Source: an uncultured Candidatus Saccharibacteria bacterium (GTDB lineage: Bacteria > Patescibacteriota > Doudnabacteria > UBA920). From it: DNA of 64,000 bases. Below the pieces are notes generated by a model. That model saw only the letters and a program-made list of their open reading frames with translations, made no database searches and was not told where the DNA came from. This document shows, one piece after another, positions 233 through 61,285 of this stretch. Positions within the stretch are counted from its first letter, which is position 1. Each line of letters begins with the position of its first letter. Location: assembly GCA_964532425.1 (NCBI GenBank), contig CAZHIA010000002.1:13945-77944 (forward strand), in the 5' to 3' direction. Both the position numbers and the translations under genes were made by a program.

Positions 233-461
233 ATTTACTAAGCCATGAGCCATGCTTATATTAATGTCAAATGACAAATATCAAATTACAAATCAATTTC
301 AAATTATATAATTTCAAATTTGACATTAGGATTTGATTTGAAATTTGATATTTAAAATTTGTCATTTAAGCCTTAAGAAATTACCAGAATTTCCCCTGTC
401 CAACACGGTGTTGACTAAACCTTTTTACTCAGTTATACTGCCCAATCCACAGGAGGAAACT

Positions 462-1178
462 ATGGGATCGCTCGTTATCACCCCCACCGACACAGACATC
501 TTTATCGCGCACAAGAAGCTGTATAGTTCGCTCCGCTACTGGTTGCTCGGGAAGGAGTATCATAATGCCTCCCGCGCCCTGAACTTCGCCGCCAAGTGGC
601 ATAACAAGGTCCGCAAGGACGGCAAGACTCCGGAATTCGACCACCAGCTGCGAATTTGCCACTATATCCGCACCCTGCCGAAGCTGCTGTACCCGGAAGA
701 GACCATCACCACCGGCCTGTTGCATGATGTGGTCGAAGACTATGACGTCACCATCAACCAGATTGCGGATCTGTTCGCTGACCGCGCATTTGCGATGCGG
801 GTCAGTCACTCCACCTGGCTGGTCACCAAAAAGAAAGACGGCGAAGGCAAGTCAGCGCAGTTCTACTACGGGGAAATGTCGTCCGACCCGATCGCTTCAA
901 TAGTCAAAGGCGCGGATCGCGGCCACAATTTCCAGACCATGGTCGAAGTCTTCACGCTCGAAAAGCAACGGGAGTACATCGCAGAAGCAGAAGCCTACAT
1001 TCTGCCGATGCTCAAACGAGCCCGCCGCCTGTTTCCCGAACAGGAACCGGCGTACGAAAACATCAAGCATGTTCTCGTCTCGCAGATCGAGCTGATCCGG
1101 CATATTCATGCCGCTGCAGCTGCCGCCAACCGGCAGCCGCGACAGGCGGTGCGCCGGCCAGCGAAGAAGGCGAAGTAG
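462..1178 (+). CDS. HD-domain phosphohydrolase, RelA/SpoT-type (p)ppGpp hydrolase-like
   Basis: AGGAGG at 451-456 then ATG 462; conserved H...LLHDVVED motif typical of RelA/SpoT HD domains; ORF track 345..1178 starts too early (inside upstream palindrome). Confidence 0.6.
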   Translation: MGSLVITPTDTDIFIAHKKLYSSLRYWLLGKEYHNASRALNFAAKWHNKVRKDGKTPEFDHQLRICHYIRTLPKLLYPEETITTGLLHDVVEDYDVTINQIADLFADRAFAMRVSHSTWLVTKKKDGEGKSAQFYYGEMSSDPIASIVKGADRGHNFQTMVEVFTLEKQREYIAEAEAYILPMLKRARRLFPEQEPAYENIKHVLVSQIELIRHIHAAAAAANRQPRQAVRRPAKKAK

Positions 1179-1280
1179 CAAACAAGCCGTCCCGACGCGT
1201 CTGGACGGCTTTTATCACAAGTATAAACCTCCAACGTCCAGTAGTATGGTAAGATGTAGTTGACTATTAACCGGATACCC

Positions 1281-1883
1281 ATGAACGGAACATTCAACAT
1301 CCTCGCGTTTTGCGGCAGCTTGCGCAAAGGTTCGTACAACATGTCACTCCTGCAAGCCGCACAAAAACTTGCTCCGGAAAATACCAAAATCGAAATATTC
1401 GATATCAGCACCTTCCCTTTGTTTAACCAGGATCTCGAACACAATATGCCTGCACCGGTGCTGGAATTCAAACAGAAAATCAAAGCTGCCGACGCCGTGC
1501 TTATTTCCTCGCCGGAATATAATTACTCAATCCCGGGCGTACTCAAGAATGCCATTGACTGGGCCTCGCGCCCATACGGCGACAGCGCGTTCGAGGACAA
1601 GCCGGTAGCCATTATGAGCACCTCTACCGGCATGCTGGGCGGGTCGCGCGCGCAATACCATCTGCGCCAGGTCTTCGTCTTTTTAAATGCCCACCTGCTC
1701 AACAAGCCGGAGGTCATTGTCCCGAATGCCGCGGAAAAATTCGACGAACAGGGCAGACTGAAAGACCTTAAGACGTGTGACAAAATTTCAGAGCTGCTTA
1801 CAGCCCTCTCTGCCTGGGCCGAACGCCTCCACACCCAGCCCCAGCCAGCCCGCCAGCAACAAAAGCAAACAGAAAAGAAATAA
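1281..1883 (+). CDS. NAD(P)H-dependent FMN reductase family oxidoreductase
   Basis: ILAFCGSLRKGSYN...VLISSPEYNYSIPGVLKNAIDW matches FMN_red family; ORF-track start 1260 is TTG, ATG at 1281 fits family N-terminus. Confidence 0.7.
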   Translation: MNGTFNILAFCGSLRKGSYNMSLLQAAQKLAPENTKIEIFDISTFPLFNQDLEHNMPAPVLEFKQKIKAADAVLISSPEYNYSIPGVLKNAIDWASRPYGDSAFEDKPVAIMSTSTGMLGGSRAQYHLRQVFVFLNAHLLNKPEVIVPNAAEKFDEQGRLKDLKTCDKISELLTALSAWAERLHTQPQPARQQQKQTEKK

Positions 1884-1887
1884 ATAA

Positions 1888-1920
1888 TCCCCTTGAGGAC
1901 GGTCCTCAAGGGGATTTTTG
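1888..1920. terminator. bidirectional intrinsic terminator
   Basis: atccccttgaggacggtcctcaaggggat hairpin + ttttg; convergent genes on both sides. Confidence 0.6.
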
Positions 1921-1928
1921 TATTCAAG

Positions 1929-2417
1929 TCATTGGAAACTTTTCAGCTGCCGTTCGATCTCGAGAATCTGATTCGTGATCGGAAACAGGCAAGCGTCGAC
2001 CAGGCGACGACTGACCATAAGTCCCTTTTGGGCGAACGCGCCGATCATTTCATCCACACAATCAATAGAACGTCCTTTGTACGTAAGACCAAGAGTGTTA
2101 CGGCTGGTCACCGACCAATTTCGTGGCAGTTCGATCGTTACTTTGGCAAAGGTAAGATCGCCACTGTACAGCCAATTAAACTCGAAAGCACAAACCAGAT
2201 AGCAAACACCTTCAAATGTTACCTGATGATCAATTGATCGGATCAGGAAAGGCTTGGCGTGGTACACGACCGGCAACGGATCCGGCTCGCGGGCCCTGGC
2301 CAGCTCCTTGGGCCCAGACACTGCTATGGGTGGCTTGGCAGGGGAAGGCTTTTCACTTATTGTCACTGCCGTCTTCCGATTATCCCTCTTGTCATCGAAC
2401 AACCTGATCAAATCCAT
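1929..2417 (-). CDS. hypothetical protein
   Basis: 162-aa ORF ending at bidirectional terminator; no recognised motif. Confidence 0.4.
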   Translation of the reverse strand: MDLIRLFDDKRDNRKTAVTISEKPSPAKPPIAVSGPKELARAREPDPLPVVYHAKPFLIRSIDHQVTFEGVCYLVCAFEFNWLYSGDLTFAKVTIELPRNWSVTSRNTLGLTYKGRSIDCVDEMIGAFAQKGLMVSRRLVDACLFPITNQILEIERQLKSFQ

Positions 2418-2475
2418 AGCCCCTCCTGTTTAGACTTGGTGTTACCGAAGGCTTGAAGGCAGCCTTCAAGGGGAT

Positions 2476-4159: not shown

Positions 4160-6091
4160 ATGAATCTCTCTTCGCTTTCCTCAGAACTCAATATGTCCAT
4201 TCAAGAGCTTCGCTCGCAGGCGCGTGCGAAGGGATTTTTCATTTCCGACAAAGCGAACAAAATTGATAACTACCTTGCCAAAAAAATAGTAGAAGCCTTG
4301 CGGCCGGACGTTGCAGCCCGCCACCAGCCCCAGACCAATGGCAAGCCGAAAAAAGTTAAACTCCCCACTTTTATTAAAGTCCGCGACTTTGCCGTACTCT
4401 TAGAACTTCCCGTTACGAGTGTCATCAAAGTCCTCATCCAGAACGGAGTCATGGCCACCATTAACGAAGAGATCGATTTCGACACTGCCGCGATTGTGGC
4501 CGGCGATCTTGGATTCGAAGTGGAAAGCCAGGCTGACCAGTCTACCCAGGAAATCGGTCTTGGGTACTTGCAAGAAGTACTCAAAGCTGAAAAAGAAGAA
4601 GACCTGCGGCCCCGGCCGCCAATCGTCGCTATTATGGGACACGTCGACCACGGTAAGACCACCCTGCTCGACACCATCCGCAAGACCAATGTGGCGGCAG
4701 GGGAGTCCGGCGGCATTACCCAGCACATTGGTGCCTACCAGGTTAAAAAGAACGGCAAGACCATTACCTTTTTGGATACTCCGGGCCATGAAGCGTTTTC
4801 GGAAATGCGCGCCCGCGGCGCCAACGTGACCGACTTAATCGTATTGGTCGTAGCAGCCGATGACGGCGTGCGCCCGCAAACCCTGGAAGTCATCAATCGC
4901 GCCAAGTTTACCAACACGCCGATGATCGTGGCCATCAACAAGATCGACAAGCCCGAAGCCAACATCATGCGCGTCAAGCAGGAACTGGCCGGCCAGGGCG
5001 TGCTCACCGAAGAATGGGGTGGCAAAACCATCGCAGTGGAAATCTCCGCCAAGCAAGGCATTGGCCTCGACAATCTTTTGGAAATGATCCTGCTTACTGC
5101 CGAAATTGAGAACTTCCGCGCCAATCCACACGGCAAGACCATCGGTACTATCATCGAATCGAAAATGACCCATGGTAAGGGCTCGACTGCGTCCGTTATA
5201 GTCCAGAATGGCACACTCCGCGTGGGAGATATAATTGTAGCCGGCGCAGCCTATGGACGCATTCGCTCGCTCGATGACGAAAACGGCCGCAAGCTTAAGG
5301 AAGCCGGGCCGTCCTGTGCTGCGCAGATCTCGGGTTTTTCCGAAGTTCCGCAAGCGGGCGACATTCTTCAGACCATGCCAACTCTGGATGAAGCTAAACA
5401 AATCGCCATTGCCGCCCAGAAACGCGCCCAGAGCCACCGTTTGCATGCACGCCAAATCCTGCAAGGAGACGCGGAAAGCAAAACCTTGAATTTGATTATC
5501 AAAGCCGATGTCGCCGGTTCTTTGGAAGCCATTAAACAGTCCATTGGAAAACTGAAGAACGACGAAGTAAAGATCAATATCTTAAGCGAAGGCGTTGGTG
5601 AAGTGAACGAGTCGGATATTATGCTGGCAGACAACTCCAAAGCAAGCATTATTGCCTTCCGAAGCAAAGTAAACCCCAAAGCCGCAAATCTCGCCAAGCA
5701 AAAAAATACACTGGTCGACACGTATGATGTCATTTACGAGCTGATCGAAGATGTTACCTCAGCGGTCATTAAGATGTTCACGCCGGAATTGGAAAAGATC
5801 AGTTATGGCACGGCCAAGGTTCTTGCCATTTTCCGCACGGAAAAGAATCAAATGATCATCGGCGGCCGGGTCGAACAGGGCGAACTCCGCAAGAACGGGC
5901 AGATTGGCATCAACCGCGACGGCGCCGAAGTTGGCCGCGGAGAAATTTTAGAACTTCAGCACAGCAAGGTAGTCACCAAGAATGTCCAAAGCGGTGAAGA
6001 ATTCGGCATCAAGATTAAGACCAACGTGAAAATCAAGGAAGGGGACACTCTGGAGAGCTTCGAAGAAAAGATCAAGCAGAAGACACTGTAA
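4160..6091 (+). CDS. infB: translation initiation factor IF-2 (short-N-terminus form)
   Basis: GTP-binding motifs [27 protein letters not shown]; C-terminal IF-2 domains. Confidence 0.9.
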
Positions 6092-6353: not shown

Positions 6354-6716
6354 ATGAAGCAACCAAAGAAAGACATAAACCGCATAGCCAAGGTCAATTC
6401 ACTTATAGAGCACGAGCTCGGACCGATTCTGCACGAACACTTGGAAGGCGAGCCTGGCCTCGTTACCATTTCCAAAGTCGAAACCAGCGGAGATATGCGC
6501 TGGGCTAAGATTTGGATCTCGATTTTCGGCGGGGATGACGAGAAAATCCTTAAGCTGATCCATGACAACATTTACGATATACAAGGTGCGCTCAATGAAC
6601 ATTTCACCACAAAGATTATTCCGCGGCTCCAATTCTTTTTAGATACGACGCCGCGCCATGCCCAGCATATTGACGAGCTGATCAGAGAAATAAAATCGGA
6701 AGACAAACACGACTGA
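6354..6716 (+). CDS. rbfA: ribosome-binding factor A
   Basis: 120 aa, RbfA-like sequence and conserved position after infB. Confidence 0.75.
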   Translation: MKQPKKDINRIAKVNSLIEHELGPILHEHLEGEPGLVTISKVETSGDMRWAKIWISIFGGDDEKILKLIHDNIYDIQGALNEHFTTKIIPRLQFFLDTTPRHAQHIDELIREIKSEDKHD

Positions 6717-9050: not shown

Positions 9051-9070
9051 AGATGAGCATTATATGAAAA

Positions 9071-9157
9071 GCCCGGGTGGCGAAATTGGCAGACGCACTA
9101 CCTTGAGGTGGTAGCGGCCGCAAGGCTGTGGGAGTTCGAATCTCCCCTCGGGCACCA
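9071..9157 (+). tRNA. tRNA-Leu (anticodon GAG), CCA encoded
   Basis: Cloverleaf with long variable arm; anticodon loop TTGAGGT; GTTCGAATC T-arm. Confidence 0.85.
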
Positions 9158-9158
9158 T

Positions 9159-9192
9159 GAAAAATACTCTACCTAAAGGTAGAGTATTTTTC
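9159..9192 (+). terminator. intrinsic terminator after tRNA-Leu
   Basis: aaaaatactctacc taaa ggtagagtattttt. Confidence 0.6.
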
Positions 9193-9266
9193 ATGGTGAG
9201 CAGAGGTTTAATAATTATACTTCCGGCTGTATTGAAAACATCATTTCATATCGCTATACTAGATTC

Positions 9267-11130: not shown

Positions 11131-11180
11131 TATAATCTATCCAAAGAAAAATACTCCAGACAAGCTGGAGTATTTTTCTT

Positions 11181-11254
11181 TGGAGCGGCTAAGGGGAATC
11201 GAACCCCTATCCTCTCCATGGCAAGGAGAAGTTCTACCATTGAACCATAGCCGC
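11181..11254 (-). tRNA. tRNA-Gly (anticodon GCC), CCA encoded
   Basis: revcomp GCGGCTATGGTTCAATGGTAGAACTTCTCCTTGCCATGGAGAG...GGGGTTCGATTCCCCTTAGCCGCTCCA. Confidence 0.85.
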
Positions 11255-11317: not shown

Positions 11318-11498
11318 TCGTTCGTGGCATGCCATGTACCTGATCGAAGCGAATGAAGGTGGCAGTGAACCATTCAGCTTTCGGCCTCAGGTACACTGCA
11401 CTCACCACTCACTTCGTTTAAGTACATAGCATTTCTTAAATCGATTGCTTCGGTATGGTTCGTGGCATGCCATGAACCCGAACGAAGTGAGTGGTTCG
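11318..11498. repeat. ~45-bp imperfect direct repeats (GTTCGTGGCATGCCATG(t/a)ACC...) abutting tRNA-Phe
   Basis: R1 11318-11362, R2 11454-11498; inverted CGAAGTGAGTGG segment between. Confidence 0.45.
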
Positions 11499-11573
11499 TG
11501 GTGCCGGAGGTCAGAATCGAACTGACGACACGACGCTCTTCAGGCGTCTGCTCTACCACTGAGCTACTCCGGC
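11499..11573 (-). tRNA. tRNA-Phe (anticodon GAA), CCA encoded
   Basis: revcomp GCCGGAGTAGCTCAGTGGTAGAGCAGACGCCTGAAGAGCGTC...GTTCGATTCTGACCTCCGGCACCA. Confidence 0.85.
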
Positions 11574-14716: not shown

Positions 14717-14845
14717 AACCATATATTATAGATAAACATTAACCATCCGATCATGTCATTCTCCACCCTGCAAAGCCTAAAGTTTTGGTACCGCTCCTCC
14801 TCAGGCACCTGAAGGCTGTTTTCCATTGTTTGTTGGAAATCATAA

Positions 14846-14883
14846 AACGCCCTCCAGGTTCGCCTGGAGGGCGTTTTTGTTTC
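14846..14883 (+). terminator. hairpin + T-run in leader 25 nt upstream of gene 14906 (attenuator-like)
   Basis: aacgccctccaggttcgcctggagggcgtt + tttttgtttcc. Confidence 0.5.
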
Positions 14884-14905
14884 CATCAATTTCAAAGGGG
14901 GAATT

Positions 14906-15685
14906 ATGAATCACGCTCAATACTACGTTCCGCTTCAAAAGAGTCGGGACCTGCTCGCATCACGAAGCGGCCTGCGCCAACAAGTGGAGGACTTCTGGTT
15001 GTCGCGCGGCTGGGGCTTGCCGCCCCAGCAGATCAGTAGGGGACGCAACATTTCCGTGCTTGCCCGACAGCTGGTCACCTTTCGCATGGAGGAAGCTTTG
15101 TTTGTGACAATGAGCAAACAGGCCGGACTCGAACCGGTGCTGGCCGGCTATTCGGCAGACAAGCATAGTTCACAGTCACGACTCAAACAGAGCTACCTGA
15201 GTCCGAAATTCATCGAGGGTCGCAATAAGAACAACGAACTCATTATCCGTCGGGACAAATTAACTGCCAAGAGCTGGCACGGTACTCCGCTCCATTGCAT
15301 CACACTCGACAAGAAAGGCGGTACCAGCCTGGTCGACTACCACCAAAGCATTCTCGACCGGGCCAGTCCGGGAACACTCCGCTGCGATGTCAGCGAATGG
15401 TATACCAATATCCCATGGAACGATCGGTACATAGCCCTCATGTCCTGGTTTATTGCCCACGCCGTGCTTTTCGAGGACTATCACGGAGGGGAATCGGGGC
15501 CCGGACTTTCGGCGCTAACCCGGCAGCGGTTTGAACCGGCCTTTCACCAAGCAACCCGGATGTTCGGTGTTAGCCCAATCATAACCCCGCTTCCATGGTG
15601 GAATGAGTTGTCCTACTACCCCCAAGATGCGGACTGGCAACGCCTTGGTATTATTCCGCAGGAGCTACTGCAAGCGGTCGCGTAG
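14906..15685 (+). CDS. hypothetical protein (no recognised family), bracketed by P1/P2 palindromes
   Basis: AAAGGGGG SD 5 nt before ATG; 259 aa; GC-richer than neighbours. Confidence 0.55.
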   Translation: MNHAQYYVPLQKSRDLLASRSGLRQQVEDFWLSRGWGLPPQQISRGRNISVLARQLVTFRMEEALFVTMSKQAGLEPVLAGYSADKHSSQSRLKQSYLSPKFIEGRNKNNELIIRRDKLTAKSWHGTPLHCITLDKKGGTSLVDYHQSILDRASPGTLRCDVSEWYTNIPWNDRYIALMSWFIAHAVLFEDYHGGESGPGLSALTRQRFEPAFHQATRMFGVSPIITPLPWWNELSYYPQDADWQRLGIIPQELLQAVA

Positions 15686-15694
15686 TAAGTCAAT

Positions 15695-15732
15695 CCCTCC
15701 ATGGTCCCCATCCCGATGGGGACCATGGAGGG
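15695..15732. repeat. 38-bp palindrome P2 (reverse-complement orientation of P1)
   Basis: CCCTCCATGGTCCCCATC-CC-GATGGGGACCATGGAGGG; 10 nt after stop of 14906 gene. Confidence 0.8.
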
Positions 15733-15759
15733 ACACCATTATAAATAATATATCCTCAT

Positions 15760-16770: not shown

Positions 16771-16871
16771 ATAAGTATAAAAGTATCGGATAGCCAAAAA
16801 GTATTCGGAAATCCCAAAAATATAGGATTTCTGGCTAATTCGAAACAAAAATCAAAATAAAAATTACATAC

Positions 16872-17123: not shown

Positions 17124-20100
17124 AGACCAAATTCCTGTTTGCTTGGATGTGCGGCACGCTGGTTCTCGCCGAACTCTTAGTGTCTTTCAGGGCCGCTCAA
17201 GATCAGCTCGTTACGTTTATTCCCCATGCGGTACACCGGGCGGTGCCGACCATTTTCCAAGATGCATCAAACTTTGTCTCCTTTTCCGAACGGATGGCTG
17301 GAGAAAAAAACCGGTTGTTGGTACAATTAGGATTTACGATTGAAAATGATCTGCAACATACCGGCCTCATAGCCAAATCTTTCCGTAACGATTCGGTTGA
17401 ACCATACCGCGCCATGGCAAATGCCATTCAAACCGGAATTCGGAAGCAAGCAAAAGACATAGAGTATGCTACCAGGTATGGCACGATTACCCTTAAAATG
17501 TGGAAGAGCTTCTTAGCCTGGGAAAACCAAGCAGTGGTAACTGCGGGCAACTGGGCATCATCAGATCTTAGGACTGACATTACGGCGCCATATCAAACCG
17601 GAGCTGTAGCAATCAGGCAAGGGTTATACGAACAGTCCCGGCAGGTTGGTAGGTTCTGGCAGGGAATAGTAGAAAACGCCGGTTCAATCGACATTGCAGT
17701 CAATGGCTTAGGGGAGCAACCGAATTTACCGCAACGGCTTGTTGCTACTAACGTTTTTCATCTCAAAAAACAAACTGAGGCCACAAATTCAACCCCTCAA
17801 CTTTCCCTTAACGCTCAAAACGGAAAAGTCCTTGCAGCCAAAACTTCGACAAACACGAATACTGGCAAACCAGTAGCACAACCTACATACCAGCCGGGCG
17901 ATACCATGGCTATGGTCAACCAGCGATTGGATGAATACACCCAATTCTTAGCTAGCTTTGGGTATGGGGTGAATGGGAATAATGGGTCGAATGGGGTGAA
18001 TACGACCAATCAGGCATCGGGAAATCAAACCACGGTCATCAACAATGTTCCGCTCGTTACCTATGTCCCGTCCAACCAATCGCAGAACTTCTCTGGTGGC
18101 TCCCTGGCCGGCTTTACCCAGCTTGGGGCAGACGGGTTGACCGTTTCCACCGCCAGAATCAACTCCAGTTTAAATCTTTCAGGCCCGGCCACACTCTCAT
18201 CACTGACGGTGAGTGGTTTGTCCTCTCTTGCTACAACTACGGTCACCGGCACCCTGACTGCAGAACATTTTGTCGGCGACGGAAGCGGCCTAACCGGCTT
18301 ACCCAGTGGTTCGCAATGGACCACCAGCGGAAGCGATATTTATTACAACAGCGGGAATGTCAGTATCGGAACAACTACACCGACTGCAAAATTCCAGGTT
18401 GATGGGACCTCTTATCTTGGATCTAATGCATCACAAGTTGCTAGTTATTTATCCGGTTGGGCCACAGCTGAAGCGTTCGTATACGGTCACACTAGCGGTA
18501 CCGATACCAGCTGGTACGAACGAAACGGTTTATATGTAGTAGAAGAAGATCATTCAGTGGATTCAAACACCCCTTATGTATATGGGGCCACCATTCAAGG
18601 AAACGGATATGGAACCGGTGATTATTCGGAAATTGCAGGTTTAAAAGTGTGGGGAACCGTAAACAACTCCACGACAATGTCCAATCAATATAGCAGTTTA
18701 TACGGGATTCAGACTTTTGGTGGAGCATATGACGATTCATCGGTTCAAAACGCTTATGGAGTTTGGTCAACCGGCGTCTACAACGGCAATTCAAATGTGA
18801 ATAACTTGTACGCCATATATTCCAGAAGGGCCGGCTATAGTCCCGGAGGCAAAGTAAATAACAGTTACGGAGTTTATATACAAAATCCAGTAGGGGGTGC
18901 TACTGGTAATAATTATGGATTGTTTTTGGATAACATGTCGGCCGGCACATCGACAAATTTTTCTATATATTCCGCTGGAGGTACCAGTTATTTTGCCGGC
19001 AGCATAGGAGTCGGCACAACTTCTCCTGTCGCGAGTTTGACAATAAAAGGAAGTGGTGGAACAAATCCGTTTGTGATTGCGTCATCGGCCGGGTCGACTT
19101 TATTAGCAGTTACACAGTCCGGCAACGTTGGTATAAACACTTCAACCCCGGCTTTCAAATTGGATGTTAATGGCATAATAAATGCTACTGCCCTGTACGT
19201 GAATGGCTCGCCTTACATTGGCAGCCAGTGGGCCACGAACGGATCGAGTGTCTACTACAATGGCGGCAATGTTGGCATTGGGACGACAACGCCGCAAGCC
19301 AAGCTCGAAGTTGACGCTACCGTAACCCCGACAGGAAGCGAGCTGGTGAGTAACGGTTCGTTCACCGGTGGAACTGCAGGGTGGACGCTTGGGTCCAATG
19401 TCAGTTATGGCACGAATAATGTCGTGAGCACCTACGCTGGCGGTGACCCATCGTTAAGTACGAATTTTAATACGGAAGCTGGTAAAACTTATTTGCTTAC
19501 CTTTACTGTTTCCAATGCCAACGCGAATTCATATTTGTATTTCTACTTGGACAACAACCGGCTTTCTTATAATTCGGGCCAAGTCTCGAATCAGACGTAT
19601 AGCGTGGCTTTTAAAACCGACTTTACCGGAACCGAAACAATACATTTTGACCAATGGAATTACACGAATGGGGAGACGTGGACTTTAGATAATGTATCCA
19701 TTAAGGAAATAAATCCCACAAAACCCTCTCTGCTCGTTAAAAATTATAATGGTGAGACGGTTCTTTCCGCTGGCGGGGATTTATATGGGAATACCGTATT
19801 CGGATCAGCTGCACTGAGCTCAAACACCACCGGTGGTAATAATCTCGCCTTAGGCAATAGAGCATTATTGTCCAATACGTCCGGCTGGGAAAATATAGCG
19901 TTAGGTGCGAATGCTTTATTCGCAAATACAACAGGAACGCATAACATTGCTGTTGGTCCGGCGCTGGCTAGCAACACGACAGGTGATGACAATTATGCGT
20001 TTGGAATCGGTTCCATGGCTAATAACACGAGCGGCAGCGCTAATATTGCCTTGGGACACATGACGCTTAACAGCAATCAAACAGGAAGTTTTAACATAGC

Positions 20101-23536: not shown

Positions 23537-23593
23537 GACTGGTAGGATGAATGGGTGAGATGAGTCCAATAGGGTAGATAAGAATAATAAGAT

Positions 23594-37894: not shown

Positions 37895-38025
37895 AAATTC
37901 AATCGCATATTATTTGTTATAAGATGCACTTATACAACCCCCTCTAAAAGCAAACTGAAATTGTATGCCCCATAATAAAAAGCCTACTAAAGCCAAAAAA
38001 GGCTCGTTCGGCGAAGATTGAGGTG

Positions 38026-38525: not shown

Positions 38526-38599
38526 GTTGATTTGGTATAAAATATAAAAGCTTAAAAATTAATATGCAAATCAACAGATTAGAACAAATTTACAAATAA

Positions 38600-38658
38600 C
38601 TACAGATCAAAATCCATCTGTAGATATCTGTATTTCTACATCCATCTGCATATCTGTT
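38600..38658. repeat. word-built palindrome (CTACAGAT/ATCTGTAG words)
   Basis: ctacagatcaaaatccatctgtagatatctgtatttctacatccatctgcatatctgtt. Confidence 0.5.
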
Positions 38659-38943: not shown

Positions 38944-38947
38944 GTTA

Positions 38948-39050
38948 AATGACAAAAATTAAAAAAATGACATAATTGACAAAATGTAAACACCCGACTG
39001 CTATCTATTTTTTGTCAATTTTGTTCAATTATGTCATTTATGTCAATTAC
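38948..39050. repeat. TTGACAAAA-family ~100-bp inverted-repeat element, copy A
   Basis: aaatgacaaaaattaaaaaaatgacataattgacaaaatg ... ttttttgtcaattttgttcaattatgtcatttatgtcaatt. Confidence 0.65.
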
Positions 39051-40158: not shown

Positions 40159-40176
40159 AATTCTTGTCAATCTTTT

Positions 40177-40887
40177 ATGTCCGGACATTCCAAATGGGCC
40201 CAAATCAAACGAACAAAAGGCGTACTCGACCAGAAGCGCGGGCTTTTGTTTTCCAAACTTTCGAAAAAGATCAGTATTGCGGTCAAGGAAGGCGGCAGCC
40301 CGGACCCGGGTGTTAATTACAAACTGAAAAGTGCTATTGAATACGCCAAAGGCCAGGGGATGCCGAACGATAATATTGAACGGGCGATCAAGAACACAGC
40401 CAATGCCGGCGAGATCAAAGAAGTGGCCTACGAAGGTTACGGCCCGTACGGTACCGCTTTTTTGGTGGAAGCAGCCACTGACAACCCGAATCGCACCACA
40501 AATAACGTCAAGCATATTTTTTCCAAACATGGAGGTAATATGGGCGCCCAAGGCTCTGTAGCCTGGCAGTTCACCACCAAAGGACAAATTCTTGTTGAAC
40601 GTGACGAAAAGATTTCTGATATCGAAATGGCAGCCATCGACGCCGGAGCTGACGATGTACGCGAATCGGCGGAAGGTCTGGAAGTGTATACTGCACCGAA
40701 CGACCTGATCAAGGTTAAAGAAGCGCTCATTGCAGCCGGGGCTAAAGTAGCCCAGGCCGATATTATCAAAGAATCCAGCCAGGGTACTGACCTCACCGAA
40801 GACCAAAAACCGAAGGTTGACGCTCTGTTTGCCGAGCTCGAGAATGATGAGGATGTGATCGCCGTCCATACGAGCGCTAACCTTTAA
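40177..40887 (+). CDS. yebC: YebC/PmpR-family DNA-binding transcriptional regulator
   Basis: MSGHSKWAQIKRTKG N-terminus and full-length family similarity. Confidence 0.85.
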   Translation: MSGHSKWAQIKRTKGVLDQKRGLLFSKLSKKISIAVKEGGSPDPGVNYKLKSAIEYAKGQGMPNDNIERAIKNTANAGEIKEVAYEGYGPYGTAFLVEAATDNPNRTTNNVKHIFSKHGGNMGAQGSVAWQFTTKGQILVERDEKISDIEMAAIDAGADDVRESAEGLEVYTAPNDLIKVKEALIAAGAKVAQADIIKESSQGTDLTEDQKPKVDALFAELENDEDVIAVHTSANL

Positions 40888-40895: not shown

Positions 40896-40975
40896 TACAT
40901 TTGACCATTAACCATTAACAATTAAACAGGCCATTGCCATCCGGTCAAAAGTCAATGGTTAATTGTTAAATGTTT
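40896..40975. repeat. word-built AT-rich spacer (TTGACC/TTAACA words)
   Basis: catttgaccattaaccattaacaattaaac ... ggtcaaaagtcaatggttaattgttaaatg. Confidence 0.45.
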
Positions 40976-46230: not shown

Positions 46231-46335
46231 TTAATTGACAAAAATGACAAAATTGATCAAAATTGACAAAATTATACTGCAATCCTGTTCTCCATTTTTG
46301 TCAATTTTGTCAATTTTTTAAATTTTGTTCAATTC
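46231..46335. repeat. TTGACAAAA-family inverted-repeat element, copy B
   Basis: aattgacaaaaatgacaaaattgatcaaaattgacaaaatt ... atttttgtcaattttgtcaattttttaaattttgttcaatt. Confidence 0.7.
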
Positions 46336-47621: not shown

Positions 47622-48479
47622 ATGAACAAACCACTTTTTTCCAAATTAGCCAAAGTCACGCTTTTGATCGTTTTTTGGGTTGTAGTCGTATTTATCGGCT
47701 GGCAGGCCATGAAAAAACCGGCTTTGACCGGCGACTGGCAGCCCCAATTGGCAGTGCCTTCTACCGCCGAATTTCACGACGACTTGGTGACTATCCACAA
47801 CGTACGCAATTTCCGCTACGGACCGGGAAAAGAATCAGACACTCATCCTGCGTATTATGATAAAACCTATGACCTGCGGAAAATCAAACAGATTTGGTAT
47901 GTGACCGAACCATTTAACGAAAATAAGACGGCCGCTCACACCTTCCTGTCGTTCGAATTTAATAATGGAGATTTTTTAGCGATCACAATTGAAGCCCGCA
48001 AGACCAAAGACCAAACCTATAGTATTTGGAAGGGGATGCTCCACACGTATCCGCTCATGTATATTGCGGCGGACGAGCGTGATGTGGTTCTGGTTCGGGC
48101 CAATTTACGCAAAGACAATGTCTACGCGTACCCAGTCAAACTCAGCAAGCCGGAAAATGCCCGGGTACTACTGGTTGATATGTTGGAGCGCATGAATAAT
48201 CTCTTAGTCCACCCAACCTGGTACAACACCTTCTGGGCCAATTGTACGTCCAGTATTGCTTACCATGTTAACCGCATCACCCCGCACCGTATTTCCATGT
48301 GGTCATGGCAATTGTGGCTGACCGCTTCGGCTGATGAACTGGCTTTAAAACATGGGTTATTGGATACCAACCTTCCTATAGAACAAGCCCGGCAACAATA
48401 CTTTATTACTGAACGCTCGCAAAAAGTCGGGGATGTGGAAGGATATTCGAAGTTGATCAGGGAGTTTGAGAAGAAATAG
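47622..48479 (+). CDS. DUF4105/Lnb-N-terminal-domain-like membrane-anchored protein
   Basis: N-terminal TM; AHTFLSFEF...YSIWKGMLHTYPLMYIAADERD pattern; family assignment from memory. Confidence 0.5.
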   Translation: MNKPLFSKLAKVTLLIVFWVVVVFIGWQAMKKPALTGDWQPQLAVPSTAEFHDDLVTIHNVRNFRYGPGKESDTHPAYYDKTYDLRKIKQIWYVTEPFNENKTAAHTFLSFEFNNGDFLAITIEARKTKDQTYSIWKGMLHTYPLMYIAADERDVVLVRANLRKDNVYAYPVKLSKPENARVLLVDMLERMNNLLVHPTWYNTFWANCTSSIAYHVNRITPHRISMWSWQLWLTASADELALKHGLLDTNLPIEQARQQYFITERSQKVGDVEGYSKLIREFEKK

Positions 48480-48618
48480 AAAAATAAAAAAATAGAAAAT
48501 TCAAAAATTCAGATCTTCGAAGGTGTAGGGGCGGCCAGCGGCCGCCCGATAACCAAAAGCTAGTAGTTTCCCTTACAAAATTTTAAAATCTTTCTATTTT
48601 TTTATCTTTTTATTTATT

Positions 48619-50780: not shown

Positions 50781-50845
50781 ATTGTAACATTTAACAGTTA
50801 ACATTTGATCCGCCGCGGCGGATCAATTGTCAAAGGTCAATTGTT
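50781..50845. repeat. word-built palindromic spacer with 20-bp perfect core TGATCCGCCGCGGCGGATCA
   Basis: taacatttaacagttaacatttgatccgccgcggcggatcaattgtcaaaggtcaattgtt between yidC stop and jag start. Confidence 0.6.
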
Positions 50846-52232: not shown

Positions 52233-52238
52233 ATTCGT

Positions 52239-52373
52239 TTAAACAGTGAGTTTTTTTCTGCCTTTAAGACGTCTGTTAGCCAGGACGTTTCTACCGCCTT
52301 TAGTCTGCATGCGTGTGCGAAATCCATGCCTTCTGCTGCGTCTCTGGGCTTTGGGTTGGTAGGTTCTCTTCAT
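52239..52373 (-). CDS. rpmH: 50S ribosomal protein L34
   Basis: Hand translation of minus strand: [44 protein letters not shown]; not in ORF track (<60 aa). Confidence 0.85.
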
Positions 52374-52487
52374 GGTCTTTCCTATATATCAATTTAGTTA
52401 ATATTCTCGGCTAATTATACTAAAAAAAACTACCATAGTCAACTCTTCATAACAATATAAACCAGGTATCCAATCATTAAACACACA

Positions 52488-52601
52488 TTATCCACAACAT
52501 ATAAACAGCTAAGTCAATTATCCTTATATCTATGAGGTTTTTTAGTGCATTTACATGTTGATAACTCCCTGTTAGAATGAGGTATCGATAGGATATCCAC
52601 A
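52488..52601. promoter_or_regulatory. DnaA boxes upstream of dnaA
   Basis: TTATCCACA 52488-52496 (perfect), TTATCCTTA 52518-52526, TTATCAACA (minus) 52556-52564, ATATCCACA 52593-52601. Confidence 0.55.
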
Positions 52602-52655
52602 AGTTATTTCGAATTTTTCAAAGGAAACCCAAATTCAATTGCAAATTTTGCCTGT

Positions 52656-54026: not shown

Positions 54027-54284
54027 CATGGGAAAAGTGGTTGATAGGCATGGAATAAAAGTTGGATAAGTTGTGTGAAAAACTTCAAACAAACCGCCTC
54101 TAGCAGGATACACACTAAGATACCCACAACCAGTACCAAGTTATCCACGGAAAAACACAGACTTATCTACAGGATTACTTTTAAAATCATGTGATGAATA
54201 CGGATAAAACCAACTATTCCACAAATCAACAAGGCTTATTATCACTATTGTTATGTATTTAAATTATTTATTTATAAATAATAT
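54027..54284. promoter_or_regulatory. candidate oriC: DnaA-box cluster plus AT-rich unwinding element in dnaA-dnaN spacer
   Basis: TTATCCACG 54141-54149, TTATCTACA 54164-54172, TTATCCAAC (minus) 54062-54070, TATTCCACA 54215-54223, aTACCCACA 54120-54128; AT-rich 54241-54284. Confidence 0.55.
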
Positions 54285-55385: not shown

Positions 55386-55486
55386 TCAACATAATTCGAA
55401 TTCCCCGAATGAATACAATCCGAATGATCCAAATATAATCATTTGGGGCATTCGGAAGGAATTCGTAGATTCGGATTATATACCTT
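55386..55486. repeat. word-built palindrome (CGAAT/ATTCG words)
   Basis: aattcgaattccccgaatgaatacaatccgaatgatcc ... ggggcattcggaaggaattcgtagattcggatt. Confidence 0.55.
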
Positions 55487-56569
55487 ATGAAGATTAAGAA
55501 TATCCAGATTAAGAATTTTCGCAATTACCCGAACCTTAACATTGATATCACCAGTGATGTGGTGGTGCTTTCCGGTCCGAATGCTGTGGGGAAAACCAAC
55601 CTACTTGAATCAATTTATTTTGCCTCGTTATTCAAATCATTCCGCGATGATACGGAATTTATCTTCTTGAAAGACTTTACGAGCGCTGAAATAAGAGTCA
55701 AGCTCGATAAAAAACAAGAAGATCATATTTTGGAGATCTTTTTGGAAAAACGCGACAAAATTTACGCCAATTTTGTGATTGATGGTGTTAAAATGAAGCG
55801 CCGTGAAGCACAGGGTTATGTGAGTGTGGTTATTTTTGACCCAACTGATGTTGATATGTTCAGTAAAACACCTGAAACCAGGCGTAAGTATTTAAACATG
55901 GTGCTGTCCCAAAAGGATTTGAAGTACCTTGAGAATATAACCCAGTATAAAAAAATCCTGTATCAGAAGAATAAACTGCTTGGTGATATGCGAGCTGGCC
56001 GTTCCACTGGTAGTGATTTGCAATCCTGGAACGAACAATTGGTAGCGGTTGGTAGCGAGATAGTGTTAAGCCGGCGCCAGTTCATCAACTACCTTAATAA
56101 CAATATTGCGGAAGTATACACTACTATTTCCGGCTTCCACCGTCCGGTGGAAGTGCAATATGAAAGTTACGAAGGTGAGACGGTTGCTGAAATTGCTGAA
56201 AATATGCAACATAAACTCGCCACTTATTCCGAAAAAGAACGGCTTATTGCCACTTGTTTGGTTGGGCCACACCGTGATGATTTCTTCCTAAAAAGCGATG
56301 GATTGTATTTGTCACCATTTTCTTCTCGTGGTGAACTGCGCAGTCAAGTGTTGGCTTTGAAGATTTTAGAGCTTGAATATCTCAGTCGTGGCGACGACAA
56401 ACCGATACTACTCTTGGATGATGTGTTGTCTGAATTGGATGAGACCCGTAGAACTTTCCTGCTCCGTTACCTGCAGGGAAAGTTTCAAACCTTTATTACG
56501 ACCACACACCCGCTTGAGATGCCAGCCCAGCATATTACACTGACGCCTGCCGTAGCTGAAGAAGAGTAA
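55487..56569 (+). CDS. recF: DNA replication/repair protein RecF
   Basis: Walker A GPNAVGKTNLLE; SMC-like signature LLLDDVLSELD. Confidence 0.9.
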   Translation: MKIKNIQIKNFRNYPNLNIDITSDVVVLSGPNAVGKTNLLESIYFASLFKSFRDDTEFIFLKDFTSAEIRVKLDKKQEDHILEIFLEKRDKIYANFVIDGVKMKRREAQGYVSVVIFDPTDVDMFSKTPETRRKYLNMVLSQKDLKYLENITQYKKILYQKNKLLGDMRAGRSTGSDLQSWNEQLVAVGSEIVLSRRQFINYLNNNIAEVYTTISGFHRPVEVQYESYEGETVAEIAENMQHKLATYSEKERLIATCLVGPHRDDFFLKSDGLYLSPFSSRGELRSQVLALKILELEYLSRGDDKPILLLDDVLSELDETRRTFLLRYLQGKFQTFITTTHPLEMPAQHITLTPAVAEEE

Positions 56570-56668
56570 ATATATCGAATCAACGAATTAACCGAATCTA
56601 CGAAGGGCTACAAATTCGAAATTTCATAGTTATTCGTTGATTCGTACCTTTCGCAGATTCGATATATT
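56570..56668. repeat. word-built palindrome (CGAAT words)
   Basis: atatatcgaatcaacgaattaaccgaatctacgaa ... ttcgttgattcgtacctttcgcagattcgatatatt. Confidence 0.6.
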
Positions 56669-59229: not shown

Positions 59230-59240
59230 AAAGATATAAG

Positions 59241-59807
59241 TTATTGGTGCGTTAAGTGTGTTGGGTTACTTAAGTTTCCTTCCTTGGCAAAATTGGAATT
59301 CTTTTCATACAGATCAAGCACTTGCTTTTCGATCCTGCCCGGGTGGGGAACGTTCTCGAATTCAAACCGTTCCTGGGTACCCGCAGTCTGGATATAGACG
59401 TTTCCATAGTCAAACAAGGTCCCAAAAATACCAGTGGTTTCACTGGTGACATCTTCGATCTTGTCGATATGGAGCTCAGAGATGGTGTGGGAAAATAACC
59501 CAACCTGGTAAATATCAACGACGCGTAGGCTGGTAATGATCTGAATATTGAGGTAGTACATGATCCAGATAAGGAACACGCTCAACATGAGGCACATGGT
59601 GTACAACTGGGTGCATAAAGTGGTGACAACACCGATTTGGCCATCGAACAATCCCGGCAGGTTTACCGGGGCTTTCCATTCAAAAACCACTAACGCCACG
59701 GCAAAGACCGCCCAAATTAACAATTTGAGCATCAGGCGAATCCAGTGTTCGCGGACTACCAGATAGATTTCCTCCTCGTCTAGCTGGCTGGGGAATAGTT
59801 TGCGCAT
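59241..59807 (-). CDS. membrane protein with bacterial PH-like domain (YdbS/YdbT-like)
   Basis: Two TM helices followed by ~100-aa soluble domain; family assignment tentative. Confidence 0.45.
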   Translation of the reverse strand: MRKLFPSQLDEEEIYLVVREHWIRLMLKLLIWAVFAVALVVFEWKAPVNLPGLFDGQIGVVTTLCTQLYTMCLMLSVFLIWIMYYLNIQIITSLRVVDIYQVGLFSHTISELHIDKIEDVTSETTGIFGTLFDYGNVYIQTAGTQERFEFENVPHPGRIEKQVLDLYEKNSNFAKEGNLSNPTHLTHQ

Positions 59808-59813
59808 ATAAAA

Positions 59814-60026
59814 TTAGGAACCAATAGTATGTAGCGTAATATACGACTGCTGAAGCAGTCCCAAAAAAATAATCCCATAGAACACTGCCACCACCAAACT
59901 TACCATGGGGCTTCTCCCATAGCGGAGCAAAATGTACACGGCGAACAAGGAGAAAAATGTTAGTATCCCTGTAATGGCATAATAAATGCCGGCGATGATG
60001 AGTATGGCTGGGTTGGAATAGTCCAT
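59814..60026 (-). CDS. small membrane protein
   Basis: 70 aa, two TM helices; 6-nt gap to downstream gene. Confidence 0.4.
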   Translation of the reverse strand: MDYSNPAILIIAGIYYAITGILTFFSLFAVYILLRYGRSPMVSLVVAVFYGIIFLGLLQQSYITLHTIGS

Positions 60027-60030
60027 AGGT

Positions 60031-60127
60031 TAATTGACAAAATTGATATAATTGACAAAAATGAGCAAAAATTTGGGCCCATTAATTTTGTCAATTTTGT
60101 TCAATTTTTTAAATTTTGTTCAATTAC
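60031..60127. repeat. TTGACAAAA-family inverted-repeat element, copy C
   Basis: taattgacaaaattgatataattgacaaaaatgagcaaaaattt ggg ccc attaattttgtcaattttgttcaattttttaaattttgttcaattac; right arm near-identical to copy B right arm. Confidence 0.7.
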
Positions 60128-61179
60128 AAAAGTGTTTTTTGTTTTCCCGGGTACTCTTTCCCTAAATGCTGGTAGGCTAGTTCAGTGGCTTCCCGTCCTT
60201 TGGGGGTGCGGGAAATAAAGCCGAGGCGGATAAGAAACGGCTCTAGGACATCTGTGATGGTGTCTTCTTCTTCACCGGTGGCAGCCGCTAGGGTATTGAG
60301 TCCGACCGGGCCACCTTTGAATTTATCGATGAGGGTTTCGAGAATACGACGGTCGTTTTTATCAAGTCCTAACGGATCGACTCCAAGCAGGTTGAGAGCC
60401 TCTCGGGCGGTATCTGCTTCAATTGTATCATGGCCATTCACTTGGGCAAAATCACGGACGCGTTTTAGTAGCCGGTTGGCGATGCGAGGGGTGAACCTGC
60501 TGCGGCGGGCTAGCTCGCGACTGGCCTCTTCCGTAATTTTGGCCCGTAAAATTGCACTGCTTCTGGTAATGATCTTAGTCAGGTCGTCTTCTGTATAGTA
60601 TTCCAGGCGGTACAGCGCGCCAAAACGATCGCGGAGCGGAGAGGATATTAATCCAACGCGGGTAGTGGCGCCGATAAGGGTGAACTTTGGCAGTTCCATG
60701 CGAATAGAGCGGGCTCCTGGGCCTTTGCCAAGCACAATATCAAGAACATAATCCTCCATGGCAGGATAGAGGACCTCTTCAACTACCTTGTTGAGCCGGT
60801 GAATCTCGTCAATAAAGAGTACGTCTCCTTCGCTGAGGTTGGTAAGCAGGGAAGCCAGGTCGCCGGCCCGCTCGATAGCTGGGCCTGAGGTGACTTTGAT
60901 GTTGACACCCATCTCACGGGAAATAATGAAAGCCAATGTGGTTTTACCGAGTCCTGGTGGCCCGTACAGCAGGAGGTGCTCCAGGTATTCATTGCGTTGT
61001 TTGGCGGCTTGAATGAGAATATTCAAGTTTTGCTTTATCTCGTCCTGGCCGACATATTCAGATAGCGTTGCGGGCCGGAGGTTTTGGTCGAAAATCCGGT
61101 CTTCAGCACTGCTTGCTGAGGCGTCGACCGGGGAAAGCTCTTCGCTGTTATTTTCTTGTGGGGTGGTGGATTTGATCAT
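60124..61179 (-). CDS. ruvB: Holliday junction branch migration DNA helicase RuvB
   Basis: Walker [15 protein letters not shown], Walker [10 protein letters not shown], sensor motifs. Confidence 0.9.
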
Positions 61180-61285
61180 AATCTACAGAACTACGGATAA
61201 TGCGAATCTACGGATAACTACGGAAAAATGGCTCCTTCTGTAGTTTTTTGTAGCGGACCCTTTCCGTAGTTTGTGTAGTTGTATT
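61180..61285. repeat. word-built palindrome (CTACGGA/TCCGTAG words)
   Basis: atctacagaactacggataatgcgaatctacggataactacggaaaaatgg ... ctgtagttttttgtagcggaccctttccgtagtttgtgtag. Confidence 0.55.

Follow-up and report, generated by a model that had tools for sequence, protein, structure and literature searches.

Word-built palindromes at operon junctions of a Doudnabacteria-related chromosome and their likeness to rRNA intervening sequences

The sequence analysed here, referred to as the window, comprises 64,000 nucleotides of contig CAZHIA010000002.1 (positions 13,945 to 77,944; assembly GCA_964532425.1) from an uncultured Candidatus Saccharibacteria bacterium. About a quarter of its gene junctions are occupied by hairpin inserts of 60-150 bp (~17 in 64 kb), mostly AT-rich palindromes whose arms are assembled from short repeated words. 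On balance, we lean towards regarding these palindromes as inverted-repeat elements of the rRNA intervening sequence (IVS) type, with and without a gene of the S23p family, which have colonised the stop-start junctions of operons rather than rRNA. The first-pass annotation of the window did not recognise a described repeat class. This holds insofar as no match to repetitive extragenic palindromic (REP) elements, miniature inverted-repeat transposable elements (MITEs), TIGR arrays or any Rfam family was obtained; however, the gene and the architecture are those of the classical 23S rRNA IVSs, and TTGACA-type arms are shared. What is new is best described as the intergenic habitat and the word-built, largely gene-less population of a known, poorly understood element type. 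A full-text literature search returned no description of such elements between protein-coding genes, although the coverage of that search was incomplete and its result is absence of evidence only.

Palindromes with and without an S23p-like gene

A hairpin scan by banded Smith-Waterman alignment, with 20 shuffles preserving dinucleotides within 100-nt blocks as control, yielded 35 hairpins scoring at least 12 in the window (shuffle mean 1.5, maximum 3) and 18 scoring at least 16 (none in the shuffles). At least 15 intergenic regions had been listed as imperfect palindromes in the first-pass annotation, which also named a shuffled-sequence control as a check; all 15 were confirmed, and chance at equal composition is not sufficient to account for them. 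RNAfold z-scores based on 100 dinucleotide shuffles lie between -3.7 and -7.9 in 15 of 16 regions, the exception being 28486-28560. The hairpins are of two kinds, namely short, GC-containing, terminator-like ones (28-48 nt) and 17 long ones (60-150 nt), most of which are AT-rich. Canonical hairpin-plus-T-run terminators elsewhere in the window, already reported, were recovered by a consensus scan. The earlier list was real in all its items but omitted the 148-bp palindrome at 48471-48618 and a 470-bp gene-bearing element at 39708-40177, and its item 23594-23670, a palindrome indeed, is only the left end of a larger composite element around an open reading frame (ORF). The palindromes are not assembly artefacts, since the window is matched with 100% identity, across 8.3 and 2.2 kb that include three palindromes, by two independent Logan assemblies, the only further ones of this organism.

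The word structure of the arms is periodic at many loci. The best period is 7 nt at 263, 28486, 29192, 29472, 40896 and 50781 and 9 nt at 38946, 46231 and 60031 (p <= 0.03 versus shuffles), while in the CGAAT, TACGAA and CTACGGA palindromes the words are irregularly spaced and the arm periodicity is not significant versus shuffles. When 45 palindromes from the window and related loci were compared all against all, nearly all were singletons. The notion that each locus uses its own word thus describes most loci, but the palindromes at 38946, 46231 and 60031 form one sequence family, hereafter the TTGACAAAA family, with arms 92-97.5% identical over 40 nt (92.5% for 38946 versus 46231 and 97.5% for 46231 versus 60031).

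The element between rsmI and yebC connects these palindromes with a gene. Its ORF at 39760-40134 matches PF05635, '23S rRNA intervening sequence protein', over residues 5-109 with 46.2 bits (cut-off 33.8), NCBIfam TIGR02436 with 64.6 bits (cut-off 24) and PDB entry 2rld with E=1.9e-11, and it encodes an S23p/Avd-like four-helix-bundle protein of 124 aa. It is flanked by arms at 39712-39739 and 40133-40160, 28 nt long and 96% complementary, in which ATTTAAATGA and ATTGACA words occur in six copies spaced 9 nt apart. The whole element spans the 470 bp from the rsmI stop to the yebC start, and its inverted-repeat (IR) score is 23.5, versus 7.9+-1.2 in shuffles. Thus, it has the architecture of the short palindromes plus a gene in the loop. 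A second ORF, at 23677-24309, shows a weaker similarity to PF05635 (E=1.3e-4, below the cut-off) and a weak match to TIGR02436, and carries a suffix domain, TIGR04258, with 49.4 bits (> 40). It is enclosed by sets of ATAGGA/TCCTAT words at 23587-23669, 24005-24036 and 24305-24361; the arms 23614-23645 and 24005-24036 of this composite element are 78% complementary.

Eight loci bearing homologues of the S23p-like protein were fetched (L207, L208, L210, L211, L222, L227, L228 and L230; Table 1). Word-built inverted arms were found at seven of them, all but L227, with IR scores of 16-30, compared with shuffle means of 7.7-9.2 (+- 1.2-1.4) and shuffle maxima of 12-15. The words appear to follow the protein clade: TTGACA or ATTTAAATG types occur at 59-71% identity, ATTTTCG heptamers at 51-54%, TAAGAT heptamers at 50-53%, and ATAGGA with the suffix-domain ORF. 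The arm of the gene-bearing element of L211 is 97.6% identical over 42 nt (E=3e-18) to an ORF-less palindrome of L110, and an arm of the S23p element of L207 is 96.3% identical over 27 nt to the left arm of the ORF-less palindrome at 60031 in the window. Gene-bearing and gene-less elements thus have arm sequences in common. Inspection by eye of the loops of the ORF-less copies revealed no remnants of an S23p ORF. Close homologues of the S23p-like protein lie mostly on very short contigs (0.5-2 kb), a pattern in keeping with metagenome assemblies being broken by the gene and its repeated arms, and a hint of multi-copy status.

Gene junctions and spread between sites

According to a curated gene list, 15 of the long elements lie between tandem genes and two between divergent genes; none was found at the nine convergent junctions, which have short canonical terminators in place of long palindromes. 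The statement that the palindromes occur between convergent, divergent and tandem genes alike is thus not borne out, although 17 elements are too few for the lack of convergent cases to reach significance (P about 0.08). Most elements fit closely between coding sequences: 13 of the 17 have an end no more than 7 nt away from a start codon, and 11 of the 17 have an end that overlaps the upstream stop codon or lies within 9 nt of it. The starts adjacent to palindromes showed no promoter signature, their scores being no better than background, so that the genes beside the palindromes are most simply internal cistrons. A leaderless promoter within the start-proximal arm was considered and rejected, as the TATAAT-N6-ATG arrangement is clear at other genes of the window whereas palindrome-adjacent starts are at background level.

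Comparison with related genomes indicates that the palindromes were added to compact junctions. In L084, whose RecF is 79% identical, the dnaN/recF junction measures 3 nt, the recF and dciA genes overlap, and the PBP/wzy and ruvB/next junctions measure 10 and 9 nt; in L082 (RecF 81% identical) the ruvB/next junction is 16 nt long. The window has palindromes of 96-104 bp at junctions that are 0-16 nt in these relatives, and the flanking codons are conserved. The palindromes are thus insertions into tight stop-start junctions. No long palindromes were found in relatives L002-L004 and L084. Those of L082 are built from different words (the one after recF from CACAGAT, in contrast to CGAAT in the window), and heptamer-word palindromes (CTAATAA and TTAGAAG) occur in a distant locus of Patescibacteria, L067. 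The word-built style is thus patchy across lineages of the candidate phyla radiation (CPR), and the suggestion that the elements are lineage-restricted agrees with their distribution, as they are missing from close relatives L002-L004 and L084 and present in L082 and the distant L067. In L082, recF and rsmE are separated not by dciA but by a 126-bp spacer (9057-9182) that is almost wholly a CACAGAT-word palindrome; the loss of dciA may be associated with an element.

A pattern scan of metagenomes detected TTGACAAAA family copies in ten contigs of 43-48% GC, again at tight tandem junctions. These copies adjoin unrelated genes, such as ftsE/ftsX (L196), two ABC ATPases (L110) and the 3' side of tsf (L093), and no homology was found between the genes flanking them and those flanking the family in the window. 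Because copies occupy non-orthologous junctions in several genomes, the family must have spread between sites and was not simply inherited in place. The presence of one family beside unrelated genes in different genomes also argues against the earlier idea that word identity marks co-regulated gene sets. The same ten contigs bear palindromes with words of their own (AATAGG, ACGGAT, TTAGAGA, AAGTAAG and CACAAAT). Family copies share the ends AAGTTAATTGAC...GTCAATTAACYT and often a centre CTGCA(G), the orientation of the centre motif being independent of gene direction; the number and order of words differ among copies, as if units had been gained and lost. The ends are often TTAATTGAC...GTCAATTA(A/C), which would suit TTAA or TA as a target. 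Most matches of the pattern scan belong to an unrelated low-GC repeat and not to the TTGACAAAA family. That repeat is a conserved element of ~150 nt (...ggtcccaatTTTTGTCAATTTTGTTCAATTgggtccttttttgctaacaccgtttaaatcattaacggccatgaa) in more than 50 contigs of 23-35% GC (L087-L165; JGI samples Ga0214542-5, Ga0209589, Ga0209389 and Ga0099822/3), with many TTGTCAA-like words and one end at an opposite-strand start codon, a high-copy repeat of an unrelated organism.

Table 1. Palindromes, arms and associated ORFs in the window, and loci with homologues of the S23p-like protein
Location	Feature	Context	Score and statistics
263-366	104-bp AT-rich palindrome, 7-nt words ATGTCAA/ATGACAA/ATATCAA	between canonical terminator (210-232) and TTGACT-17-TATACT promoter (411-440)	score 22; period 7, p=0.007; z=-4.8
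23587-23669	ATAGGA/TCCTAT-word palindrome	left end of composite ORF-bearing element 23578-24361	z=-4.0
23677-24309 (+)	210-aa ORF, four-helix bundle plus suffix domain	enclosed by ATAGGA word arrays	
24305-24361	third ATAGGA/CCTAT word set	closes composite element	
28486-28560	weak palindrome, GATTTCAG words	probably within 5' leader of gene 28565; promoter-like site at 28454-28482	z=-2.4 only
29196-29269	GTTCAAA-word palindrome	fills junction from stop 29191 to ATG 29273	period 7, p=0.003-0.007; z=-4.6
29478-29581	TTGACC/TTAACA/TTGACA 7-nt-word palindrome, GC-rich centre	immediately upstream of gyrA	score 18.5; p=0.003; z=-6.0
34791-34870	TACGAA-word palindrome	canonical terminator 34753-34778 before, promoter-like site 34933-34961 after	score 18; z=-7.9
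38591-38658	CTACAGAT/ATCTGTAG-word palindrome	end 6 nt from ATG at 38665	score 12; z=-3.9
38946-39049	TTGACAAAA-family palindrome, ORF-less	between orf92 and rsmI	score 19
39708-39749	left word-built arm of S23p-bearing element, ATTTAAATGA/ATTGACA	overlaps rsmI stop codon	9-nt period
39760-40134 (+)	124-aa PF05635 four-helix-bundle ORF	in 'loop' between arms	
40132-40177	right arm of S23p-bearing element	ends at yebC ATG (40177)	
40897-40973	TTGACC/TTAACC/TTAACA 7-nt-word palindrome	fills yebC/ruvC junction	score 15.5; p=0.003; z=-4.3
46233-46334	TTGACAAAA-family palindrome	fills PBP1/wzy junction	score 25.5; z=-6.9
48471-48618	148-bp palindrome, AAATAGAAA words around GC-rich core hairpin		score 20.5; z=-5.2
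50786-50845	TTAACA-word palindrome, perfect 20-bp core TGATCCGCCGCGGCGGATCA	fills yidC/jag junction, minus strand	score 15; z=-3.9
55386-55486	CGAAT-word palindrome	exactly fills dnaN stop/recF ATG	z=-4.1
56569-56668	CGAAT-word palindrome	after recF stop	score 16; z=-7.0
60031-60126	TTGACAAAA-family palindrome	between ruvB (-) and 70-aa ORF (-)	score 21.5
61183-61278	CTACGGA-word palindrome	divergent junction, ruvB start versus gene 61356	z=-4.5
L207	S23p homologue	inside hrcA-grpE-dnaK-[ORF]-x-dnaJ	
L208	S23p homologue	in sugar-nucleotide cluster	
L210	S23p homologue	5' of rsmI, same neighbourhood as window	
L211	S23p homologue	between pilB and pilC	
L222	S23p homologue	beside glutamate dehydrogenase gene; 58% GC	
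L227	S23p homologue, upstream heptamer array only	in Chloroflexota arginine/lysine cluster	
L228	S23p homologue	between iPGM and 3147-aa protein	
L230	S23p homologue	after parB	

The gene order rnpA-yidD-yidC-jag / dnaA-dnaN-recF-dciA-rsmE is that of a bacterial chromosome segment around oriC. Pfam matches among the window proteins include IF-2, GyrA, PBP1, DnaA and S1; there are seven tRNAs, and the cumulative GC-skew minimum lies at ~52-54 kb. In a species-representative genome collection the best relatives of DnaA belong to uncultured Patescibacteria, the top one (76%) labelled Saccharibacteria and others (72% and 61%) Candidatus Doudnabacteria, and relatives of RecF are also named Doudnabacteria. 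The window is thus part of a Doudnabacteria-related CPR chromosome around oriC. A phage origin, prompted by an HD-domain protein, was rejected, as megablast of 18 kb against a phage collection gave nothing and bacterial oriC-region genes were found instead. The spacers rnpA/dnaA (52233-52655) and dnaA/dnaN (54027-54284) lie at the GC-skew minimum, the expected site of oriC. At six starts (6354, 9267, 43160(-), 43375, 47622 and 54285) the ATG is preceded at a distance of exactly 6 nt by TATAAT or TATACT, apparently as a leaderless promoter; a TTGxxx -35 box is often present 17 nt upstream of that hexamer, and none of these six starts has a Shine-Dalgarno site. Shine-Dalgarno sites are few in general, a GGAG-like motif being present at only about a quarter of starts. 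These sequence features suggest that leaderless mRNAs are widespread in this CPR genome.

Several other structures were recorded in the window. Perfect hairpins of 20-22 bp begin at the CCA end of tRNA-Leu and tRNA-Gly on the minus strand (9153-9198 and 11140-11184); both contain the core GAAAAATACTC, possibly a shared signal for tRNA 3' processing or for termination. Between tRNA-Gly and tRNA-Phe (11329-11500) there are nested GC-richer palindromes of CACTCAC/GAAGTGAGTGG words, in composition unlike the AT-rich elements. A perfect loopless palindrome of 42 bp (37855-37896) lies directly 3' of a TrmB-like regulator gene (37064-37831), and a perfect 19-bp hairpin (15694-15733) lies 3' of the gene at 14906-15685. 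A tRNA-Ile with anticodon UAU, identified by ARAGORN and Rfam at 32734-32809, represents an unusual means of reading AUA, which is normally decoded by a lysidine-modified CAU tRNA.

Proposed origin and competing explanations

Each element consists of two inverted arrays of tandem 7-10-nt words flanking a centre that is either short (an ORF-less, MITE-like form) or holds a gene for a ~120-aa four-helix-bundle protein of the S23p/PF05635/Avd-like type. By analogy with the 23S rRNA IVSs, we propose that the element would be co-transcribed with its operon, and the arms would pair into an AU-rich stem of 25-45 bp closing a few nucleotides from the upstream stop and the downstream start. Because the stem would close beside the stop and the start, the coding sequences and the junction geometry would stay untouched. 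RNase III might then cut the stem, so that the cistrons are separated or the loop is removed, and the host would tolerate the insertions as selfish or near-neutral DNA, some perhaps being co-opted as processing or stability signals. Local gain and loss of units by slippage, together with distinct element lineages, could give each locus its own word. In the least secure step, a protein recognising the word arrays would be involved in the spread, the pentameric S23p being the most plausible candidate; two observations suggest such a protein, namely the conservation of arm sequence but not of arm pairing and the apparent correspondence between word type and S23p clade. A bolder version of this idea, which we regard as rather doubtful, is that S23p and word-built arms make up an unrecognised class of mobile hairpins, in which the protein reads the words and promotes copying into junctions and rRNA helices, RNase III neutralises the insertions at the RNA level, and the rRNA IVSs are a second habitat.

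A number of observations weigh against the IVS-type interpretation. No RNase III gene was found in the window, and the ~40 window proteins scanned include neither a transposase nor a reverse transcriptase nor the product of any other known mobility gene. The window elements do not lie in rRNA genes, the defining location of IVSs, as tRNAs are the only Rfam matches in the window. In Coxiella, the S23p ORF itself probably goes untranslated (PMC4990558). The flanks of the elements showed no convincing target-site duplication, the terminal palindromic TTAA/TA being ambiguous with an extension of the terminal inverted repeat. The sequence tie to S23p is limited to TTGACA-type palindromes (3 of the 15 ORF-less ones) and two ORF-bearing elements, and the other singletons (CGAAT, TACGAA, CTACGGA, GTTCAAA and so on) are linked to S23p by architecture and position only. 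Signs of selection for an RNA stem are not seen either. The stems of 25-45 bp are only 70-90% paired, mismatches between arms are mostly transversions, and G.T pairs are not in excess of A.C (11 versus 10, in plus-strand contexts). In addition, compensatory or co-evolving arms were not detected in the TTGACAAAA family, in which the mean complementarity score is 19.0 within copies and 20.4 +- 5.3 between copies; what is conserved is the arm sequence in inverted orientation, not the pairing within a copy. Finally, the IVS-type model leaves unexplained that the 5' arm is richer in A than in T in 15 of 17 long elements, and hence the 3' arm richer in T on either strand, and that some elements have GC-rich cores reminiscent of bidirectional terminators.

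The last two features would be natural if the palindromes were RNA signals selected by the host, that is, AU-rich bidirectional terminators or attenuators, or intercistronic stabilising or processing hairpins tuning operon expression. The A-rich 5' and T-rich 3' arms, the GC-rich core hairpins at 48471, 50786 and 29478, the position immediately 3' of stop codons, and a continuum from the long palindromes to canonical terminators with extended arms (14830-14889 in the window; L008) speak for such signals, and REP hairpins of E. coli are known to serve as intercistronic stabilisers. However, the elements interrupt conserved operons in which termination would be harmful (dnaN-recF-dciA, yebC-ruvC, yidC-jag, ftsE-ftsX and pilB-pilC), three of them (263, 34791 and 38591) lie directly 3' of a canonical terminator, and none is present at convergent junctions, where short canonical terminators are found; these positions make termination unlikely as a general function. 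Since, moreover, the downstream starts lack a promoter signature, G.U is not favoured over A.C, compensatory change is not seen and close relatives manage without the elements, we consider host-selected RNA signals improbable. An array of double-stranded DNA sites bound by proteins of the host (transcription factors, nucleoid proteins, sigma-70 region 4 in the case of TTGACA, or the like), with the word acting as operator of a regulon, would agree with the conservation of arm sequence instead of pairing, with the identity of many words to TTGACA, the -35 consensus of the genome's own promoters, and with words that face the centre from both sides in an operator- or iteron-like manner. Yet more than ten words in 64 kb are hard to reconcile with a genome having very few regulators (just two TrmB-like proteins were seen), one family stands beside functionally unrelated genes, the -35-like words are wrongly spaced from any -10-like hexamer, and periods of 7 and 9 nt would leave the sites off a single helix face, all of which renders this explanation still less credible. 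That inverted word arrays can be protein-binding sites is illustrated by L016 (Berkelbacteria), where perfect DnaA boxes (TGTGGATAA/TTATCCACA) arranged in inverted arrays beside dnaA (6373-6507) make up an oriC resembling a word-built palindrome and provide a positive control. The regulatory or nucleoid-structuring role envisaged in the first-pass annotation thus finds no support in the promoter signatures of adjacent starts, in wobble bias or in within-copy pairing.

Purely local growth is a different matter. Replication slippage and intrastrand template switching in a palindrome-tolerant lineage, for example one without SbcCD or single-stranded DNA exonucleases, might produce 'palindromic minisatellites' with neither mobility nor function. 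As the majority of loci use a word of their own and resemble no other sequence in the window or among the other loci fetched, as word number and order vary between family copies as by gain and loss of units, and as the palindromes of the distant CPR lineage L067 are alike with unrelated words, a share of such growth is likely, and it is kept as the main rival; the variable heptamer number between Coxiella strains (PMC4990558) and the 'palindromic microsatellites' of organelles (PMC7218506) are precedents. As the whole explanation, local growth seems unlikely to us: arm identities of 92-98% across loci and genomes and a shared centre motif require copying between sites, the repeated tie to one gene family (both arms at 9 of 10 S23p loci) is unexpected of mutation alone, and arms that are no more complementary within than between copies argue against ongoing homogenisation of arms. 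Copying between sites is what conventional non-autonomous transposons would provide, either MITEs derived from insertion sequences (IS) or REP doublets (REPINs) moved by a REP-associated tyrosine transposase (RAYT) encoded elsewhere in the genome. The terminal inverted repeats, small size, several copies, intergenic location, spread of one family across genomes and ends fitting a TTAA or TA target are all as expected of them, but a target-site duplication is never unambiguous, and S23p, which to our knowledge is not a known transposase, is the only ORF between such arms in ten loci. Neither a transposase nor RAYT was found among the window proteins scanned, so an IS-derived MITE was rejected, as was a REP/REPIN-RAYT system, the Y1 transposase, a shared head motif and the GTAG/CGTC REP heads being missing and the copies being mostly unique and far less uniform than REPIN or MITE populations. 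We therefore hold conventional transposons to be very improbable.

Should the IVS-type interpretation prove correct, the CPR intergenic elements would represent a rich comparative set, with many sites, both forms and words appearing to track protein clades, for questions on rRNA IVS origin and mobility and on the function of the S23p gene, an Avd homologue, that have stood since about 1990, and would allow S23p to be tested as a mobility or recognition factor. It would also mean that ~5% of a streamlined genome of ~1 Mb is selfish hairpin DNA within essential operons, with a bearing on transcription organisation, mRNA processing and non-Shine-Dalgarno or leaderless translation in such organisms. 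In practice, repeats of this kind break assemblies and mislead gene and operon prediction in metagenome-assembled genomes of CPR bacteria.

Comparison with known systems

Several known structures could be set aside on architecture. Intrinsic (bidirectional) terminators share just the A-to-T polarity of the arms, the stems being AU-rich without a free T-run. A TIGR-Tas array repeats dual-spacer units of ~36 nt in a long tandem series and is accompanied by a Tas gene with a Nop domain, whereas the window has single dispersed hairpins with words of 7-10 nt and no Nop-domain protein among the proteins scanned. For integron attC sites, the flanks are conserved-order housekeeping operons, no integrase was seen, and GTTAAAT-like ends occur in a few elements only. 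DnaA boxes, uptake sequences and LexA (CGAAC) boxes do not fit words that differ between loci in housekeeping-operon contexts, and Rfam families gave tRNAs alone.

The TAACTGA heptamer repeats of Beggiatoaceae, Cyanobacteria and Bacteroidetes (PMC4679880) and the short tandemly repeated repetitive (STRR) sequences of cyanobacteria resemble the window elements in having tandem 7-nt words near starts without Shine-Dalgarno sites and a patchy phylogeny. In contrast to the window elements, they use one word per genome in direct orientation only (one inverted case in 170), and no palindrome or ORF has been reported. In an Oscillatoriales cyanobacterium (L078), the same hairpin scan returned STRR/TAACTGA-like heptamer arrays at 5346-5454, 16783-16856 and 17692-17772 (AACTGTT x7 then CCAATTA x5; TTAACAG). 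Organellar palindromes (Fusarium mitochondria, PMC7218506; Volvox and Lobosphaera; hairpin elements of sponges) are likewise intergenic and built from microsatellite-like palindromic words, differ in presence between close relatives and are suspected of mobility, but they belong to organelle genomes, differ in sequence and have no associated protein gene.

MITEs and REP/REPIN elements (Correia, RUP, BIME, REPIN-RAYT) are also small non-coding inverted repeats in intergenic or intercistronic DNA, with ORF-less/ORF-bearing pairs and hairpins transcribed within operons. Unlike these, the window elements have tandem-word arms, S23p as the partner gene, low similarity between copies, no transposase or RAYT and no clear target-site duplication. 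The PF05635 family has a homologue in diversity-generating retroelements, namely their accessory protein Avd (PMC10053308), which resembles PF05635 proteins as a pentameric, basic, nucleic-acid-associated four-helix bundle (PMC10053308). The window genes differ from Avd genes in their inverted-repeat cassette context, with no adjacent reverse transcriptase, template repeat or variable repeat.

The IVSs remain the closest parallel. The ORF-less IVSs known from Salmonella and alpha-proteobacteria are, like the window elements, AU-rich non-coding stem-loops of ~100 nt, constant in shape and variable in sequence, and so are the uncharacterised insertions of <200 bp in rRNA genes of CPR bacteria, lineages known for their abundance of them (bioRxiv 10.1101/2024.02.27.582315). 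The elements described here differ from them in lying at mRNA junctions, not in rRNA. We know of no description of arms constructed from tandem words in ORF-less IVSs. In CPR rRNA genes, 23S_rRNA_IVP ORFs have been reported together with many short ORF-less insertions at the classical IVS sites (bioRxiv 10.1101/2024.02.27.582315). The 23S IVS of Coxiella burnetii is a selfish element of 428 nt with a terminal inverted-repeat stem of 28 bp, an S23p ORF in the loop and, just before the ORF, two to three tandem GACAGAT heptamers whose number varies between strains (PMC4990558). It is excised by RNase III without religation, as are the IVSs of Salmonella and Leptospira (PMC4990558). Unlike S23p IVSs, which lie in rRNA helices 9, 25 or 45, all elements of the window occur between protein-coding genes of housekeeping operons; they are dense (~17 in 64 kb), of several word types in one genome and mostly ORF-less, 15 of the palindromes having no ORF, as in ORF-less IVSs. 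In other respects the agreement with the S23p IVSs of C. burnetii, Leptospira and Brucella is close, namely a long stem formed by terminal inverted repeats, a ~120-aa PF05635 ORF in the loop (39760-40134 here and, less strongly, 23677-24309), tandem heptamer words of variable copy number by the ORF, and a sporadic distribution of elements considered selfish (PMC4990558).

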